Origin: a virus
Taxonomy: Duplodnaviria > Heunggongvirae > Uroviricota > Caudoviricetes
Reading direction: 5' to 3' (one strand)
Virus record (IMG/VR): IMGVR_UViG_2671180676_000009
Length of the DNA stretch: 34,976 bases
The notes beneath the pieces were generated by a model, which searched no databases, had not been told where the DNA came from, and saw only the letters and a program-made list of their open reading frames with translations. The position numbers were made by a program, and so were the translations under genes. Below are positions 9,082 to 34,976 of the stretch, piece by piece (within the stretch, counting starts at the first letter, position 1; every line of letters starts with the position of its first letter).

Positions 9082-12762
<3,681 letters not shown>

Positions 12763-12782
<20 letters not shown>

Positions 12783-23847: not shown

Positions 23848-26800
23848 ATGGGTAAAGGCAGCAGTAAGGGGCATACTCCGCGCGAAGCGAAGGACAACCT
23901 GAAGTCCACGCAGCTGCTGAGTGTGATCGATGCCATCAGCGAAGGGCCGGTTGAAGGTCCGGTGGATGGATTAAAAAGCGTGCTGCTGAACAGTACGCCA
24001 GTGCTGGACAGTGAGGGGAATACCAATATCTCCGGCGTCACGGTGGTGTTCCGGGCCGGTGAGCAGGAGCAGACACCGCCGGAGGGATTTGAATCCTCCG
24101 GCTCCGAGACGGTGCTGGGTACGGAAGTGAAATACGACACGCCGATCACCCGGACCATCACGTCGGCAAACATTGACCGACTGCGCTTTACCTTCGGTGT
24201 GCAGGCACTGGTGGAAACCACCTCAAAGGGGGACCGGAATCCGTCGGAAGTCCGCCTGCTGGTTCAGATACAGCGTAATGGTGGCTGGGTGACGGAAAAA
24301 GACATCACCATTAAAGGCAAAACCACCTCGCAGTATCTGGCCTCGGTGGTGGTGGATAACCTGCCGCCGCGCCCGTTTAATATCCGGATGCGCAGGATGA
24401 CGCCGGACAGCACCACAGACCAGTTGCAGAACAAAACGCTCTGGTCGTCATACACCGAAATCATCGATGTGAAACAGTGCTACCCGAACACGGCACTGGT
24501 CGGCGTACAGGTGGACTCGGAGCAGTTCGGTAGCCAGCAGGTGAGTCGTAATTATCATCTTCGCGGGCGCATTCTGCAGGTGCCGTCGAACTATAACCCG
24601 CAGACGCGACAATACAGCGGTATCTGGGACGGAACGTTAAAACCAGCATATAGCAACAACATGGCCTGGTGTCTGTGGAATATGCTGACCCATCCGCGCT
24701 ACGGCATGGGGAAACGTCTTGGTGCGGCGGATGTGGATAAATGGGCGCTGTATGTCATCGGCCAGTACTGCGACCAGTCGGTGCCGGACGGCTTTGGCGG
24801 CACGGAGCCGCGCATTACCTGTAATGCGTACCTGACCACACAGCGTAAGGCGTGGGATGTGCTCAGTGATTTCTGCTCGGCGATGCGCTGTATGCCGGTA
24901 TGGAACGGGCAGACGCTGACGTTCGTGCAGGACCGACCGTCGGATAAGGTGTGGACCTATAACCGCAGTAATGTGGTGATGCCGGATGATGGCGCGCCGT
25001 TCCGCTACAGCTTCAGCGCCCTGAAGGACCGCCATAATGCCGTTGAGGTGAACTGGATTGACCCGAACAACGGCTGGGAGACGGCGACAGAGCTTGTTGA
25101 AGATACGCAGGCCATTGCCTGTTACGGTCGTAATGTTATGAAGATGGATGCCTTTGGCTGTACCAGCCGGGGGCAGGCACACCGCGCCGGGCTGTGGCTG
25201 ATTAAAACGGAACTGCTGGAAACGCAGACCGTGGATTTCAGCGTGGGCGCAGAAGGACTTCGCCATGTGCCGGGCGATGTTATTGAAATCTGCGATGATG
25301 ACTATGCCGGTATCAGCACCGGCGGTCGCGTGCTGGCGGTGAACAGCCAGACCCGGACTCTGACGCTCGACCGTGAAATCACGCTGCCATCCTCCGGCAC
25401 CACGCTGATAAGCCTGGTTGACGGGCAGGGGAATCCGGTGAGCGTGGAGGTCCAGTCCGTCACTGACGGCGTGAAGGTGAAAGTGAGCCGTGTTCCTGAC
25501 GGCGTTGCCGAATACAGCGTGTGGGGACTGAAGCTGCCGACGCTGCGCCAGCGCCTGTTCCGCTGCGTGAGTATCCGTGAGAACGACGACGGCACGTATG
25601 CCATCACCGCCGTGCAGCATGTACCTGAAAAAGAGGCCATCGTGGATAACGGGGCGCACTTTGACGGCGACCAGAGCGGCACGGTGAATGGTGTCACGCC
25701 GCCAGCGGTGCAGCACCTGACCGCCGAAGTCACCGCAGACAGCGGGGAATATCAGGTGCTGGCGCGCTGGGACACGCCGAAGGTGGTGAAGGGCGTGAGC
25801 TTCCTGCTCCGTCTGACCGTAACAGCGGATGACGGCAGTGAGCGGCTGGTCAGCACGGCCCGGACGACGGAAACCACATACCGCTTCACGCAGCTGGCGC
25901 TGGGGAACTACAGGCTGACAGTCCGGGCGGTAAATGCGTGGGGGCAGCAGGGCGATCCGGCGTCGGTATCGTTCCGGATTGCCGCACCGGCAGCGCCGTC
26001 ACAGATTGAGCTGACGCCGGGCTATTTTCAGATAACCGCCACGCCGCATCTTGCGGTTTATGACCCGACGGTACAGTTTGAGTTCTGGTTCTCGGAAAAG
26101 CGGATTACCGATATCAGGCAGGTTGAAACCACAGCACGCTATCTTGGCACGGCGCTGTACTGGATAGCCGCCAGTATCAATATCAAACCGGGCCATGATT
26201 ATTACTTTTATATCCGCAGTGTGAACACCGTTGGCAAATCGGCATTCGTGGAGGCTGTTGGTCAGCCGAGTGATGATGCATCCGGTTATCTGGATTTTTT
26301 CAAAGGCGAGATAGGGAAAACCCATCTGGCTCAGGAGCTGTGGACGCAGATTGATAACGGTCAGCTTGCGCCTGACCTGGCTGAAATCAGGACGTCCATT
26401 ACGGATGTCAGCAATGAAATCACGCAGACCGTCAATAAGAAACTGGAAGACCAGAGTGCGGCAATTCAGCAGATACAGAAGGTTCAGGTTGATACAAATA
26501 ATAACCTGAACAGCATGTGGGCTGTGAAGCTGCAGCAGATGCAGGACGGACGCCTTTATATCGCGGGTATTGGTGCCGGTATTGAGAACACCCCTGACGG
26601 CATGCAGAGTCAGGTGCTGCTGGCGGCGGACAGGATTGCGATGGTTAATCCTGCGAATGGCAACACAAAACCGATGTTTGTTGGTCAGGGCGATCAGATA
26701 TTCATGAACGACGTGTTCCTGAAACGCCTGACGGCCCCCACCATTACCAGCGGTGGAAATCCACCGGCATTTTCCCTGACTCCGGACGGAAAGCTGACCG

Positions 26801-27345
26801 CTAAAAATGCGGATATCAGTGGCAGTGTGAATGCGAACGCCGGGACGCTCAACAATGTCACGGTAAATGAAAACTGTACGATTAAGGGCATGCTGGAGGC
26901 GACTCAGGTCAGAGGTGACTTCGTTAAAGCTGTATCCAAATCATTTCCGAAACAGGCTGGTACGTGGGGTAACACGGAAACACCAAACGGGACGGTTACA
27001 GTCACCATAAGCGATGATCATAACTTTGACCGTCAAATCATTATTCCGCCCATTATCTTTAACGGAATAGCGTATAGCGATCCGGGAAGTGGTAATAACC
27101 CGGGAGGTACAAGATACACGGGTTATGGTTTTGAAGTTCGCAAAAACGGTGTATTAATCGCATCCAGAGAAACTAAAGGGGCTATTCCCGGTAGCTACAG
27201 TGCGGTTATTGATATGCCGAGTGGCAGGGGAAGCGTCACTCTGGAGTTTAAGGTTTTCCATAAAGGCAATCAGTGGGCAGGTAATATCACCGACTGTACG
27301 GTGATTGTGACCAAAAAAGCGGCTTCAGGCATCAGTATTCGTTGA
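23848..27345 (+). CDS. J: Tail tip / host-specificity protein J (1165 aa)
   Basis: [41 protein letters not shown]...; lambda-like over most of its length but with a different, longer C-terminal segment. Confidence 0.9.
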
Positions 27346-27367
27346 AATATTTATAACCCCAATAAAT

Positions 27368-27392
27368 GGCGTCAGGAATGACGCCTTTTTTA
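27368..27392 (+). terminator. Rho-independent terminator after J
   Basis: GGCGTCA-GGAA-TGACGCC followed by TTTTTT. Confidence 0.7.
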
Positions 27393-27415
27393 TTGCAGAA
27401 AAGCGAGAGGTAATT

Positions 27416-28015
27416 ATGCGTAAAGTTTGTGCAGCCATTTTGTCCGCAGCCATTTGTCTGGCCGTATCCGGTGCGCCTGCATGGGCGTCTGAACATCAGT
27501 CCACGCTGAGCGCGGGGTATCTTCATGCCCGGACCAACGTTCCCGGCAGTGATGATCTGAACGGGATTAACGTGAAATACCGTTATGAGTTTACGGATAC
27601 GCTGGGGATGGTGACGTCATTCAGCTATGCAGGAGACAAGAATCGCCAGCTTACCCGTTACAGCGATACCCGCTGGCATGAAGATTCCGTGCGTAACCGC
27701 TGGTTCAGCGTGATGGCGGGGCCGTCTGTGCGCGTGAATGAATGGTTCAGTGCGTATGCGATGGCGGGCGTGGCTTACAGCCGTGTGTCGACTTTTTCCG
27801 GGGATTATCTCCGCGTAACTGACAACAAGGGGAAAACGCACGACGTGCTGACCGGAAGTGATGACGGTCGCCACAGCAACACGTCTCTGGCGTGGGGAGC
27901 TGGCGTGCAGTTTAACCCGACCGAATCCGTGGTTATTGATGTCGCTTATGAAGGTTCCGGCAGTGGTGACTGGCGCACTGACGGTTTCATCGTGGGTGTC
28001 GGTTATAAATTCTGA
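27416..28015 (+). CDS. lom: Lom outer-membrane protein (Ail/Lom family beta-barrel, 199 aa)
   Basis: Signal peptide [24 protein letters not shown]; C-terminal ...GVGYKF; AGAGG RBS. Confidence 0.9.
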
Positions 28016-28042
28016 TTAGCCAGGTAACACAGTGTTATGACA

Positions 28043-28068
28043 GCCCGCCGGTTCAGGCGGGCTTTTTT
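28043..28068 (+). terminator. Rho-independent terminator after lom
   Basis: GCCCGCC-GGTTCA-GGCGGGC followed by TTTTTT. Confidence 0.7.
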
Positions 28069-28079
28069 GTGGGGGGAAT

Positions 28080-31000
28080 ATGGCAGTACGGATTTCAGGT
28101 GTACTGAAAGATGGCGCAGGTAAGCCGATACAAAACTGCACCATTCAGCTAAAGGCCAGGCGCAACAGCACCACGGTGGTGGTGAACACAGTGGCCTCAG
28201 AAAACCCGGATGAAGCCGGGCGTTACACAATGGACGTCGAGTATGGTCAGTACAGCGTCAGTCTGTTGGTGGAAGGATTCCCGCCGTCACATGCCGGGAC
28301 CATCACCGTGTATGAAGATTCCCGACCCGGTACGCTGAATGATTTTCTCGGTGCCATGACGGAGGATGATGCCCGTCCGGAGGCTCTGCGCCGTTTTGAA
28401 CTGATGGTGGAAGAGGTGGCGCGTAACGCGTCCGCGGTGGCACAGAACACGGCAGCCGCGAAGAAGTCAGCCAGTGATGCCGGCACATCTGCCAGTGAGG
28501 CGGCAACCCATGCGACTGATGCTGCAGGCTCAGCGCGTGCAGCCAGCACGTCAGCCGGACAGGCCGCGACGTCGGCTCAGGAGGCGTCTTCCAGCGCAGG
28601 AACGGCATCAACAAAGGCCACTGAAGCATCAAAAAGTGCTGCCGCTGCAGAGTCCTCAAAAAGCGCGGCGGCCACCAGTGCCGGTGCCGCGAAAACGTCA
28701 GAAACGAATGCTGCAGCGTCACAAAAATCAGCAGCCACTTCTGCATCCACTGCGACGACGAAAGCGTCAGAAGCCGCCACTTCAGCCCGGGATGCGGCGG
28801 CCTCCAAAGAGGCGGCAAAATCATCAGAAACGAACGCCTCCACAAGCGCCAGCAGTGCAGCCTCCTCGGCAACGGCGGCAGGAAATTCCGTGAAGGCGGC
28901 AAAAACGTCCGAGACGAATGCTAAGTCTTCTGAAACGGCAGCGGAACAGAGCGCCTCAGCTGCGGCAGACTCTGAGACAACAGCTGCATCATCGGCCCGT
29001 GAGGCGTCCATTAAGGCAGAGGAGGCAGCAGTCAGTGCCACCGCCGCCGGAAAATCGGCAGAAAGCGCCGCATCATCCGCTTCAACAGCCACAACGAAGG
29101 CTGGCGAAGCCACTGAACAGGCCAGCGCAGCAGCGAGGTCTGCTTCCGCAGCGAAGACATCCGAAACGAACGCGAAAGCGTCGGAAACCAGCGCAGAATC
29201 CTCAAAAACGGCTGCCGCATCGTCCGCCAGTTCGGCGGCGTCATCGGCATCATCGGCGTCTGCTTCAAAAGATGAGGCGACCAGACAGGCGTCAGCAGCG
29301 AGGGGCAGCGCCACGACGGCATCCACGAAGGCGACAGAGGCTGCTGGCAGTGCGGCAGCGGCAGCACAGAGCAAAACGGGCAGAGGATATTGCATCCGCC
29401 GTGGCGCTTGAGGATGCGAGCACGACGAAAAAGGGGATAGTACAGCTCAGTAGTGCGACTAACAGCACTTCCGAGTCACTGGCGGCAACACCAAAAGCCG
29501 TTAAGGCCGCGTATGACCTGGCTAACGGGAAATACACCGCACAGGATGCAACGACAGCACAGAAAGGGATAATCCAGCTAAGCAGCGCGACCAACAGCAC
29601 GTCTGAAACGCTTGCCGCGACACCAAAGGCAGTAAAAGCAGAAACGTCTGCAGAAAGATCAGAACGGTGCGGATATCCCTGGCAAAGATACCTTTACGAA
29701 AAATATTGGTGCCTGCCGTGCCTTCGGTGGGTCAGTAAGCACAACAACAGGAAACTGGACGACTGCACAGTTTATCGAGTGGCTGGATTCTCAGGGAGCA
29801 TTTAACCATCCATACTGGATGTGCAAGGGTTCCTGGTCTTATGGCAATAATAAAATCATTACTGATACTGACTGCGGTAATATTCATCTCGCCGGAGCTG
29901 TCATTGAAGTAATGGGGATAAAGTCAGCGATGACGATCCGCATTACCACACCGACCACCTCCACTGGTGGTGGAACAACTAACGCCCAGTTTACCTATAT
30001 TAATCACGGAACAGATTATTCACCTGGCTGGCGAAGGGACTATAACTCCAGAAATAAGCCAACGGCATCAGAGATCGGGGCGTTACCGTCAGGTGGAACA
30101 GCAGTATCATCAGTTAATCTGGCTTCAAAAGGTCGGGTAACCGCGCTGACAGACAATACGCAGGGGGCAGCAGGTCTTGAGTTATACGAGGTGTATAACA
30201 ACGGATATCCAACAGCGTATGGAAATATCATTCACCTGAAAGGGATGACAGCCGTTGGCGAAGGTGAGTTACTCATCGGCTGGAGTGGTACAAGCGGTGC
30301 TCATGCTCCGGCATTTATTCGTTCACGACGGGATACGACCGACGCAAACTGGTCGCCGTGGGCGCAGCTTTACACCTCGGCTCATCCTCCTGCAGAGTTT
30401 TATCCAGTCGGTGCACCAATCCCGTGGCCATCAGATACCGTTCCGTCTGGCTATGCCCTGATGCAGGGGCAGACTTTTGACAAATCTGCATACCCGAAAC
30501 TTGCAGTTGCTTATCCGTCAGGCGTGATCCCTGATATGCGTGGCTGGATGATTAAGGGCAAGCCCGCCAGTGGTCGGGCCGTATTATCTCAGGAACAGGA
30601 CGGCATTAAATCGCACACCCACAGCGCCAGCGCATCCAGTACGGATTTGGGGACGAAAACCACATCGTCGTTTGATTACGGAACCAAATCCACGAATAAC
30701 ACCGGGGCGCATACCCATAGTATTAGCGGGACCGCAAATAGTGCCGGTGCGCACCAACACAAGAGTTCCGGTGCATTTGGTGGCACGAACACGAGCATTT
30801 TCCCTAATGGTTATACCGCGATTTCAAATCTAAGCGCGGGGATTATGAGCACAACAAGCGGTAGTGGCCAGACTCGTAATGCAGGGAAGACATCATCAGA
30901 TGGTGCTCATACCCACTCGCTGTCCGGCACTGCTGCAAGCGCAGGCGCACATGCACATACTGTCGGTATTGGTGCTCATACGCACTCCGTTGCGATTGGT

Positions 31001-31093
31001 TCACATGGACACACCATCACCGTTAACGCTGCTGGTAACGCGGAAAACACCGTCAAAAACATCGCATTTAACTATATTGTGAGGCTTGCATAA
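28080..31093 (+). pseudogene. stf: Side tail fibre gene stf split across three reading frames (junctions near 29373-29376 and 29654-29656)
   Basis: Frame 0 (28080-29411) has the Stf N-terminus and A/S/T-rich repeat; frame 1 has AKRAEDIASAVALEDASTTKKGIVQLSSATNSTSE...ATPKAVKA; frame 2 continues to the His-rich Stf C-terminus ...[14 protein letters not shown]. Confidence 0.75.
28430..29370 (+). repeat. Low-complexity Ala/Ser/Thr-rich repetitive segment of Stf with recurring KTSETNA-type units
   Basis: About 310 codons dominated by A, S, T, K, E with repeated AAKTSETNA / AKSSETNA motifs; yields long spurious ORFs in other frames and on the opposite strand. Confidence 0.7.
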
Positions 31094-31668
31094 TGGCATT
31101 CAGAATGAGTGAACAACCACGGACCATAAAAATTTATAATCTGCTGGCCGGAACTAATGAATTTATTGGTGAAGGTGATGCATATATTCCGCCTCATACA
31201 GGTCTGCCAGCAAACAGTACCGATATTGCACCGCCAGATATTCCGGCTGGCTTCGTGGCTGTTTTCAACAGTGATGAGTCATCGTGGCATCTCGTTGAAG
31301 ATCATCGGGGTAAAACTGTTTATGACGTGGCTTCCGGCGACGCGTTATTTATTTCTGAACTCGGTCCGTTACCGGAAAATGTTACCTGGTTATCGCCGGA
31401 AGGGGAGTTTCAGAAGTGGAACGGCACAGCCTGGGTGAAGGATACGGAAGCAGAAAAACTGTTCCGGATCCGGGAGGCGGAAGAAACAAAAAACAACCTG
31501 ATGCAGGTAGCCAGTGAGCATATTGCGCCGCTTCAGGATGCTGCAGATCTGGAAATTGCAACGGAGGAAGAAATCTCGTTGCTGGAAGCATGGAAAAAGT
31601 ATCGGGTATTGCTGAACCGTGTTGATACGTCAACTGCACAGGATATTGAATGGCCAGCACTGCCGTAG
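31093..31668 (+). CDS. tfa: Tail fibre assembly chaperone Tfa (191 aa)
   Basis: ATG overlaps stf stop (TAATG); [48 protein letters not shown]... as Tfa proteins. Confidence 0.9.
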
Positions 31669-31765
31669 GGTAAAACATATAAATTCTATAATTAGATGTA
31701 TCTTTCCATTTACGGCAAGGAAGGGGGCTTGGAAGACGTAAAGCATCTCACACCGAGATTATTTT

Positions 31766-32356
31766 TTATATGTCAGGTGTCTGAAGTTTTGCTTTGGCTC
31801 TTAAAATGGTTTGCCGCGAGGTTTTGAATTCCCGGGCAATGGCACTTATACTTACACCTGACTTAATTCGTTCGAATACCGCCTGTTTCTGTTCTTCATT
31901 TAACACAGGTGGTCGACCAAAACGTTTCCCTGCGCCGCGGGCTCTTACTATCCCGGAATGAGTGCGTTCAAGTAAAAGGTCTCGTTCAAATTCAGCGACT
32001 GCTGAAATTACTTGCATCATCATTTTTCCTGTTGGACTGGTCAGGTCAATGCCCCCCAATGCTAAGCAATGCACTCTGATACCTGTTTCGGTCAGTTGTT
32101 CCACTGTTTTCCTGATATCCATTGCATTACAACCAAGGCGATCCAGTTTTGTCACAATCAATTGATCACCACATTTCAGGCGAGCAAGCAACCGGTTAAA
32201 ACCAGGACGCTCACTGGTTGCTGCTGAGCCGCTAATGTGTTCTTCGATTATTTGCTGAGGTTTGATTTTAAAACCTGCACTTTCGATTTCCCGGCGTTGA
32301 TTTTCGGTGGTCTGATCCAGCGTTGATATCCGACAGTAAGCAAAAATTTGAGACAT
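31766..32356 (-). CDS. pin: Serine recombinase, Pin/Gin/Hin-family DNA invertase (196 aa)
   Basis: [20 protein letters not shown]... with catalytic Ser in CRIST, resolvase core and C-terminal HTH; convergent with tfa. Confidence 0.9.
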
Positions 32357-32672
32357 AGTGAGACTCTATACGAAATTGGTGTTCATATCATAATGCATCT
32401 CAGAAAATAATTATGATTATTTTTGTGCATATTTGTATGTACACGTTCGAAAATAAACGAATGCGTATGCAACCCCGTAATTTTGGTGAGACCCAAAATC
32501 GATTTTGTGAAAAATGGCTTTAACTCGGTTTGTTTTTCGAGTTCCGGGCGGACTCAAGGAAGAAGAATAGTGTTGCGTGTTATTTTAACCAGATTTCAAG
32601 TTGTTTGGTCGTGGAAAAGTGGAGCAAAATGTTGTTAAAGTGGAAAAATGATAAAAAAGTAAGTTTATTATA

Positions 32673-32906
32673 TTACATTTTACCATTTAAATTTTGGTTG
32701 TCTTTAAGAACTGATATCGCTGTTTGTAATAATTCTTTGTTATCCAGCCATGATTTTTTCTTTATGTTTCCTTCAATGTAATCAAGCAATGTTCTGGTAT
32801 TGATAGGTCTTCCCTGTTTTGCTACTTCCACTACAGCATCCCCTAGGATAATTCTTACTTCAGGAAGCTGCGCAGGGAACCACTTTAGGGTGTCTTTTGA
32901 TTTCAT
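32673..32906 (-). CDS. ydfK: YdfK/YnaE-family small protein (77 aa)
   Basis: MKSKDTLKWFPAQLPEVRIILGDAVVEVAKQGRPINTRTLLDYIEGNIKKKSWLD...; AAGGAA 7 nt upstream of ATG at 32906. Confidence 0.8.
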   Translation of the reverse strand: MKSKDTLKWFPAQLPEVRIILGDAVVEVAKQGRPINTRTLLDYIEGNIKKKSWLDNKELLQTAISVLKDNQNLNGKM

Positions 32907-33692
32907 GAAGATATTCCTTAAAATATTATTGATTTTCATTGCGATATTGTATGTCTGATTCAGGATATGTTGACTTATACATCGGTTTTGTCTGGGTTAT
33001 TGGATATGCCAATCCCTAATTTTATTAGGGCATGACTAAAAATGCTGAATATGATAAGGAGAGATGTGATTATCAGTATGCTGTTCATATAGCCTCGAAT
33101 TAGTAATGTGTTATATATGATATAGTTGACAATTTTTATCTTGGGTGTTCTTAAAGTTCGTAGATAAACATTGTCGTTTCAGGTATACAGGAATGCTAAC
33201 AGGTGGCAGCAAAAATCAGGCGGTTTATGGCGCAAGCTGAAGCGGCAACTGCAAACTATCTTATGCAGAGACTCTACACGGATTGGGTTTAAAAGTATAC
33301 ATAGATAACAGTTTTTATCTGAAAAAGAAAAATATCAAGGTGATATAGCCTATATGCCTTTGATGCGGAGGAATGAATGTGATGGGAGTGATGTATCTGA
33401 ATAGTTGAAAAACCGCAGACACGCCTTATGCAAGAACGTGCTGCGATTGGCTGGTAAATTTTTCGATAGTGTGAGTATTGAATGATTTCTAGCCGTTCTT
33501 GATTTTACGCATAAATCCATGAAAAAACTACTTATCTGTTGGGGAGTTTTTTTGGGGCATATATGGGACAGAAATAGGCCCCAGATAGACACTGAGATCG
33601 AACTTAGGATGCTTTTTAAAAAAATGCAACTATCTGAAAAAACCTAGAAAACGCCAAGGAAACCACAGGATGGGAAAAAACACCTGTGAATT

Positions 33693-34976
33693 ATGGATTT
33701 CCAGTTATATTCGCTCGGCGCAGCGTTAGTGTTTCATGAAATATTTTTTCCTGAATCATCAACGGCAATGGCGTTAATTCTGGCAATGGGAACCTACGGT
33801 GCAGGTTATGTGGCGCGTATTGTCGGAGCATTTATTTTCGGCAAAATGGGCGACAGAATAGGGCGTAAAAAAGTGCTCTTTATTACCATCACCATGATGG
33901 GGATCTGTACCACCTTAATTGGTGTGTTACCGACCTATGCACAGATTGGTGTTTTTGCACCCATCTTGCTGGTGACGTTGCGTATTATTCAGGGGTTGGG
34001 TGCAGGTGCGGAAATTTCCGGTGCCGGTACGATGCTGGCGGAATATGCGCCAAAAGGTAAGCGCGGAATTATCTCCTCATTTGTGGCTATGGGAACTAAC
34101 TGCGGAACCTTGAGCGCAACGGCAATCTGGGCCTTTATGTTCTTCATTCTCAGTAAAGAGGAACTGCTGGCGTGGGGATGGCGTATACCGTTCCTGGCGA
34201 GTGTTGTCGTGATGGTCTTTGCTATCTGGTTGCGTATGAATCTGAAAGAAAGCCCGGTCTTTGAGAAGGTTAACGACAGTAACCAACCGACAGCAAAACC
34301 TGCACCTGCTGGTAGCATGTTCCAGAGCAAATCCTTCTGGCTGGCAACAGGGCTGCGTTTTGGTCAGGCGGGTAACTCCGGGTTAATTCAGACTTTCCTT
34401 GCAGGCTATTTAGTGCAGACGTTATTGTTTAACAAAGCAATTCCAACAGATGCATTGATGATCAGTTCGATTCTCGGCTTTATGACCATTCCGTTCCTTG
34501 GTTGGTTATCCGATAAAATTGGTCGCCGGATCCCGTATATTATTATGAATACCTCCGCGATTGTGCTGGCATGGCCAATGCTTTCTATCATTGTAGATAA
34601 AAGCTATGCCCCGAGCACCATTATGGTTGCACTGATTGTGATTCATAACTGTGCGGTGCTGGGATTATTTGCTCTGGAAAACATTACCATGGCAGAAATG
34701 TTCGGCTGTAAAAACCGCTTTACCCGGATGGCTATTTCTAAAGAAATTGGTGGTCTTATCGCTTCCGGTTTTGGTCCTATCCTGGCGGGTATTTTCTGCA
34801 CCATGACGGAATCCTGGTATCCGATCGCCATTATGATCATGGCATATTCAGTGATTGGTTTAATCTCTGCGCTGAAAATGCCAGAGGTGAAAGACCGTGA
34901 TTTAAGTGCGCTGGAAGACGCTGCGGAAGATCAACCGCGTGTTGTAAGAGCTGCGCAACCTTCCAGAAGTCTGTAA
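33693..34976 (+). CDS. ydfJ: MFS metabolite:H+ symporter-family transporter, apparently N-terminally truncated (427 aa)
   Basis: ORF begins inside the conserved TM1 motif (MDFQLYSLGAALVFHEIFFPE); in-frame stop 6 nt upstream; 12-TM MFS features downstream (GDRIGRKK, RIIQGLGAGAE). Confidence 0.7.
   Translation: MDFQLYSLGAALVFHEIFFPESSTAMALILAMGTYGAGYVARIVGAFIFGKMGDRIGRKKVLFITITMMGICTTLIGVLPTYAQIGVFAPILLVTLRIIQGLGAGAEISGAGTMLAEYAPKGKRGIISSFVAMGTNCGTLSATAIWAFMFFILSKEELLAWGWRIPFLASVVVMVFAIWLRMNLKESPVFEKVNDSNQPTAKPAPAGSMFQSKSFWLATGLRFGQAGNSGLIQTFLAGYLVQTLLFNKAIPTDALMISSILGFMTIPFLGWLSDKIGRRIPYIIMNTSAIVLAWPMLSIIVDKSYAPSTIMVALIVIHNCAVLGLFALENITMAEMFGCKNRFTRMAISKEIGGLIASGFGPILAGIFCTMTESWYPIAIMIMAYSVIGLISALKMPEVKDRDLSALEDAAEDQPRVVRAAQPSRSL

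Follow-up and report, generated by a model that had tools for sequence, protein, structure and literature searches.

Gene content of the window

The stretch of DNA analysed here (34,976 nt; in the following, the window) shows the gene order J - lom - stf - tfa that is expected for a lambdoid side tail fibre gene (stf). The locus is made up of the following features, all of them on the plus strand except the last:

27416..28015, + strand: lom, Ail/Lom outer-membrane protein (PF06316, E=4e-122), the neighbour upstream of stf
28080-31093, + strand: stf pseudogene in its whole extent, spread across three frames
28080..29369, + strand: stf segment A, codons 1-430, with the phage_tail_N domain and the Ala/Ser-rich shaft
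29370..29639, + strand: stf segment B, codons 446-534 and two bases of codon 535, in frame 1 with codons from 29371
29640..29805, + strand: out-of-frame tail of frame 1 with its stop at 29803-29805, not an authentic protein
29642..31093, + strand: stf segment C, codons 542-1024, in frame 2, the receptor-binding C-terminal part with Collar and His-rich GAHTHS repeats
31093..31668, + strand: tfa, tail fibre assembly protein of the tfaQ type, intact
31766..32356, - strand: serine recombinase (invertase) of the pinQ type, intact, directly downstream of tfa

At the corresponding place, E. coli W has one gene of 3075 bp, which encodes a “phage tail protein” of 1024 aa and is located between lom and tfaQ/pinQ/ydfK/ynfT/ydfJ, and these surroundings mark the position of the Qin prophage. 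The integration site of the prophage in the window adjoins ydfJ. Furthermore, the first 25 kb of the window can be aligned from end to end, with 98.6% identity, to the complete Qin-type prophage of strain cM8a. The cM8a-like gene order begins with rem, ydfU, Q/ydfT, cspF, cspB, essD, rrrQ, rzpQ, cspI, gnsB, ydfO and nohA and continues after nohA with terminase, portal, S49 peptidase, decoration protein, capsid and the tail genes up to J. No tRNA genes were found in the window.

Two smaller observations concern these surroundings. At ynfN, the window has one extra T (window 6735 versus L020 6720-6949). In cM8a, which is the best relative among complete genomes, ynfN is annotated as frameshifted, and the ynfN of the window may be the intact form. 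The adjacent pin gene suggested an invertible segment, an idea that was rejected since no inverted repeats flank the stf C-terminus and tfa. Near pinQ, neither a second tfa nor a second stf C-terminus of a Gin/Hin/Pin-type segment was found. The sequence AAACCNNGGTTT, which we take to be the core of the Gin/Hin/Pin-type crossover site, has no match within 27300-32500, which is a weak test.

Reading frames of the side tail fibre gene

The list of open reading frames (ORFs) gives three forward ORFs between lom and tfa, namely 28080-29411 (443 aa), 28918-29805 (295 aa) and 29819-31093 (424 aa), each in a different frame. A single uninterrupted ORF for the whole fibre, which characterizes a lambdoid Stf, is not present in the window. 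Comparison with the Stf of E. coli W (WP_000279140.1) reveals how the pieces belong together. Segment A has 12 substitutions in 430 codons, and its frame hits a stop codon at 29409-29411, so that translation begun at the stf start goes no further than 29411 and yields the 443-aa ORF. Segment B, which holds both Phage_fiber_2 repeats (PF03406, two stretches, E=6.2e-37), is identical between 29371 and 29637 to residues 446-534 (89/89). Segment C (29642-31093) agrees with residues 542-1024 at 483 of 484 compared positions.

Such near-identity to an intact Stf shows that frame 2 is not open here by chance. The initial annotation had taken frame 2 to be the authentic continuation of the protein and frame 1 to end in a junk tail, and both views hold: the former by the agreement with E. 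coli W Stf, the latter in that 29640..29805 is read out of frame. Its coordinates for the frame-1 stop (29803-29805), a TAA in frame 2 (29633-29635) and the motif GAAAG (29653-29657) are all correct as well. Frame 2 is open from this TAA to the stop at 31093, and the output of gene callers contains segment C only as the 424-aa ORF starting at the internal ATG 29819.

After repair of the breaks described below, the protein has the architecture phage_tail_N, two Phage_fiber_2 repeats and Collar. The phage_tail_N domain (PF08400) covers residues 1-134 over the full length of the profile (E=3.8e-71), and the Collar domain (PF07484) residues 798-845 (E=4.9e-11). Because its coding sequence is distributed over three frames and translation stops at 29411, the stf locus is classified as a pseudogene of the Stf family.

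The Ala/Ser-rich shaft-coding part of stf is also overlapped by long spurious ORFs at 28577-29395 (minus strand), 28303-28902 (minus strand) and 28474-28893 (plus strand). Public assemblies (L002, L021-L029) list an antisense ORF of 272 aa as a gene, and related loci one of 355 aa. These long ORFs across the shaft region are annotation artefacts. For the 443-aa N-terminal ORF, an exact-sequence look-up returned no record.

Two deletions break the reading frame

For a comparison at the nucleotide level, five intact stf genes were aligned, those of E. coli W, ARS-C101, the phages mEp460 and PhiR42_1, and Salmonella SPF_0923, all of which are single ORFs of 1008-1025 aa. Between window positions 28080-31093 and stf of E. 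coli W, the alignment contains 44 substitutions and exactly two gaps, of 44 bp and 17 bp. Both missing segments are present in all five intact homologues. The two junctions are located as follows:

29369..29370, + strand: first break, junction of the 44-bp deletion; lost are AGCAAAAGTACGGCAGAATCCGCAGCAACGCGCGCCGAGACAGC, residues SKSTAESAATRAETA, codons 431-445
29639..29642, + strand: second break, junction of the 17-bp deletion; lost are AGCCAATGACAATGCTG, codons 535-541, AANDNAE

A 7-bp direct repeat, AGCAAAA, stands at the start of the deleted 44-bp segment and again at the start of the DNA behind it (retained copy 29370-29376), which allows this gap to be shifted by 7 nt. The 17-bp gap is ambiguous by 2 nt (29639/29640 to 29641/29642), since AG both starts the segment and follows it. 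This second deletion lies directly after the second fibre repeat (...ATPKAVKA). Authentic codons resume in frame 1 at 29371 and in frame 2 at 29642, where AAA encodes K542. Both gap lengths are 2 modulo 3, so each deletion causes a +1 shift, and their combined loss of 61 bp leaves the frame unrestored. When both segments are restored in silico, a 1024-aa ORF is obtained which has 13 residue differences to the Stf of E. coli W. Thus, intact orthologues exist, and the loss in the window is derived, frame-shifting and uncompensated, as in a pseudogene formed by deletion. The initial annotation had stated that stf is frame-broken here, that the break near 29640 is the second of two and that the intact gene would have about 1000 aa. 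The alignment bears this out, with the 44-bp deletion after 29369 as the first break and 1024 aa after repair.

The same difference in length was seen in a broader sample. An 801-bp query around the break found a place covered to at least 80% in 818 of 5,426 complete E. coli genomes, and in all 30 matches listed this place spans 862 bp, which is 61 bp longer than in the window.

Apart from the gaps, the region from 28925 to 30450 differs by one substitution from E. coli W and by none from ARS-C101, which indicates that the deletions arose recently and on an otherwise intact allele. An origin of the junctions by recombination with a diverged stf allele was considered and rejected, as hundreds of bases on either side of each gap are identical to those of the intact allele. 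The 44-bp loss would most likely be due to replication slippage (slipped-strand deletion) between the 7-bp direct repeats. For the 17-bp loss, with flanking microhomology of only 2 bp, a simple 2-bp microhomology deletion or an illegitimate deletion may be assumed.

Farther upstream in stf, the substitutions relative to E. coli W and ARS-C101 are clustered at 28089-28261 (25 sites) and 28805-28924 (15 sites), a pattern that would indicate two mosaic recombination patches in the N-terminal part. A further side effect is found at the second junction, where the 17-bp deletion creates a small palindrome, GCAGAAACGTCTGC, at 29638-29651 with arms of 5 bp. It was flagged on the minus strand in a terminator scan and is probably incidental.

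The A3 run has its wild-type length

The second break had initially been ascribed to a run of three A's a few nucleotides downstream, with one surplus A at 29654-29656, introduced by polymerase slippage or a sequencing error, switching frame 1 to frame 2. The run itself is as follows:

29653..29657, + strand: GAAAG with the A3 run, of wild-type length

Two observations speak for this proposal. The area is delimited by the stop codon of frame 2 (29633-29635) and by the point where frame 1 ceases to resemble a protein, and deletion of one A does join frames 1 and 2 into one ORF. When this removal was carried out, the two frames fused as anticipated; the product has 724 aa when read from a spurious ATG at 28918, and 1018 aa with the first break repaired as well. 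However, the residues at the resulting junction do not match those of intact Stf. Moreover, the stretch GCAGAAAGATCAG with its A3 run is identical in the five intact genes and the window. It follows that the run has its wild-type length and that the apparent “ETSAE” is an out-of-frame reading of EKRLQK. A difference in A-run length to intact alleles, as slippage in a homopolymer would leave behind, was found in none of the five homologues: all of them share CTGCAGAAAGATCAG with three A's, and what is missing from the window instead is the 17-bp segment. This gap accounts fully for the change of frame and lies 14 nt upstream of the A3 run, at 29639/29640, the left edge of the interval 29640-29665 in which the break had been placed. 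A surplus A thus retains a negligible probability, and the second break is attributed to the 17-bp deletion.

Occurrence of the deletions in other assemblies

The sequence of the window from 24819 to 34976 is 100% identical to a draft contig at NCBI, NLWF01000043.1 (GCA_002510585.1). A literature search for the accessions NLWF01, GCA_002510585 and OAC06150 found nothing. Gaps in a draft genome may be artefacts of assembly or sequencing with the real gene being intact, and several observations would fit such an origin of both gaps. The contig matched by the window is from a draft whole-genome shotgun assembly, the shaft region of stf is repetitive, and an additional C in gene C of the same prophage (see below) sits in a short homopolymer. 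In addition, a search of the 5,426 complete E. coli genomes with 40-mers that have either junction at their centre gave no match, so neither junction occurs in any of these genomes. By exact search, the junction of the 17-bp deletion is also absent from the GTDB species-representative genomes and from JGI metagenome contigs.

A way to further carriers was provided by the 272-aa antisense ORF, which spans the 44-bp junction and is recorded in 11 contigs. Nine of these were fetched: eight from NCBI draft assemblies (NLWF, NLHX, NLWK, NONE, NLVI, NLWE, JACFBZ, CATRLJ) and one metagenome scaffold from ENA. All nine contain both deletions together, and a contig with only one of them was not found among the nine. 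In the part of stf that was compared (2.4-3.0 kb), seven show no difference from the window, and L024 and L029 have a single SNP each, 29658 A>C and 28385 T>A, respectively. Among the eight NCBI assemblies, six (NLWF, NLHX, NLWK, NLVI, NLWE, NONE) have similar prefixes and may share one project and pipeline, so these six are not fully independent. Nevertheless, the pair of junctions recurs in contigs with the unrelated prefixes JACFBZ and CATRLJ and in the metagenome scaffold, and two of the carriers have additional SNPs, both of which speak against an artefact. With 7 and 2 bp, the repeats on either side of the gaps are far below the k-mer length of assemblers, and the surroundings of the 17-bp gap occur only once. 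Base-calling errors do not typically take the form of 17- or 44-bp indels.

An artefact is therefore very unlikely. The recurrence of both junctions in nine contigs from separate assemblies points to an inherited allele: the lesion is present in separate isolates, as far as assembled contigs represent them. Judged by these contigs, both deletions are real heritable mutations of one E. coli lineage.

Gene C and the state of the prophage

A further lesion is located in the head region. The gene for an S49 peptidase (lambda C-like; head protease/scaffold) at about 12763-14083 has an extra C at 12970-12972, where CC is changed to CCC. All three intact homologues aligned at gene C (RL465 plasmid III, CI5 and cM8a) have CC. 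The extra base splits the 439-aa gene C into the ORFs 12616-13188 and 12956-14083; no other indel in the first 25 kb of the window disrupts a frame. The CCC may be due either to a genuine mutation or to a sequencing error in the homopolymer, and none of the contigs retrieved for stf extends as far as gene C.

Altogether, the prophage has at least three frame-breaking lesions, and with gene C also being frame-broken, it is probably defective. From the stf allele of the window, no full-length Stf would be made. Any particle that formed would be without side fibres and would adsorb via J alone, as does lambda PaPa.

Possible function of the broken gene

Taken together, the comparisons make it very probable that the window comprises the late region of a Qin-type lambdoid E. 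coli prophage in which stf has become a pseudogene through heritable deletions of 44 bp and 17 bp. It must be asked in this context whether the breaks are tolerated or even functional, either by programmed +1 frameshifting or by separate expression of fragments such as the 424-aa ORF together with Tfa. The 424-aa ORF is open, the whole receptor-binding part is kept, an intact tfa follows, and the sequence downstream of the breaks is nearly undecayed. This near absence of decay is equally well explained by deletions that are recent. Since the homologues are single uninterrupted ORFs, there is no conserved change of frame, as a programmed ribosomal frameshift at a defined shift site would entail. 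Frameshifting would also require two separate +1 events, and the 17-bp loss removes coding sequence and makes no known shift site.

Separate expression of the C-terminal fragment faces further objections. A sequence similar to a Shine-Dalgarno motif is absent before ATG 29819 (...CATCCATACTGGATG), and the fragment is devoid of phage_tail_N, the N-terminal domain of the Stf fibre family, which probably anchors the fibre on the tail. From its sequence context, the 424-aa ORF is thus unlikely to be expressed independently, and a function that depends on the breaks is regarded as extremely improbable. Only slightly more room is left for a wider version, in which the stf fragments are not dead (the 424-aa ORF and Tfa giving a separate product) or the loss of side fibres is positively selected in lysogens, and this, too, appears highly improbable. 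Such selection is hinted at by the fact that stf has been hit repeatedly and independently in different E. coli lineages, and by the stf frameshifts of lambda selected in the laboratory.

For annotation, the interpretation of stf as a pseudogene means that one stf pseudogene accounts for the three forward ORFs (443, 295 and 424 aa) and also for the long antisense ORF, all of them its pieces or artefacts, and that the correct repair is to re-insert 44 and 17 bp and not to delete one A.

Comparison with other stf alleles and known systems

The intact Qin-type Stf genes (WP_000279140.1 of E. coli W, WP_000279139.1 of ARS-C101, mEp460, PhiR42_1 and SPF_0923) are the closest known forms, with about 99% nucleotide identity outside the gaps. 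They have the same neighbours (J, lom, stf, tfaQ, pinQ, ydfK, ynfT, ydfJ) and encode the same domains as the repaired allele of the window. The difference lies in the reading frame, as the intact genes are single ORFs of 1008-1025 aa whereas the allele of the window is without 61 bp and spread over three frames.

Other Qin-type stf alleles have decayed independently, and here the same gene is inactivated by lesions which differ in position and type from those of the window. A 1-bp deletion of G at position 339/340 of the stf gene was found in four loci (L003, L005, L009, L010), and a 1-bp deletion of G at position 1761 in two others (L007, L008). In another two (L004, L006), the N-terminal two-thirds of stf are lost or replaced. 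In the Qin prophage of K-12, most of the stf region is also lost. The various independent lesions in other E. coli lineages imply that decay of stf is recurrent, while the pair of 44- and 17-bp deletions is specific to the lineage of the window.

A different kind of variation was observed in S. sonnei, where three contigs (L011-L013) have an stf allele with an in-frame insertion of 132 bp at gene position 1493, which we guess to be an extra fibre repeat. The one locus of these that was translated (L012) has an intact 1068-aa ORF, and databases list only a 424-aa protein for it. A gene call of 424 aa was consequently rejected as proof of a frame break, as L012 has this call and yet an intact ORF in its DNA.

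The stf of the window is an ordinary pseudogene of a decaying prophage, without a new mechanism, and its analogue is the stf frameshift of lambda PaPa. A passage in PMC12617516, citing Hendrix & Duda 1992, states that this frameshift (orf-401/orf-314), by which lambda PaPa differs from Ur-lambda, abolishes the side fibres; the same source explains that the side fibres of lambda are dispensable because J alone suffices for adsorption. Frameshifts in stf are readily selected in lambda (PMC2762979). The locus described here adds one more natural case of the loss of a side tail fibre gene in lambdoid prophages and fits the dispensability of Stf in lambda. In both systems, a lambdoid side tail fibre gene between lom and tfa is split into ORFs by frame-shifting mutation. 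In lambda PaPa, this is a single frameshift in a laboratory stock, whereas the prophage of the window is a chromosomal one of the Qin type with two deletions in stf (44 and 17 bp), and the C-terminal receptor-binding part of its fibre is of the Qin/mEp460 type, unlike that of lambda PaPa.
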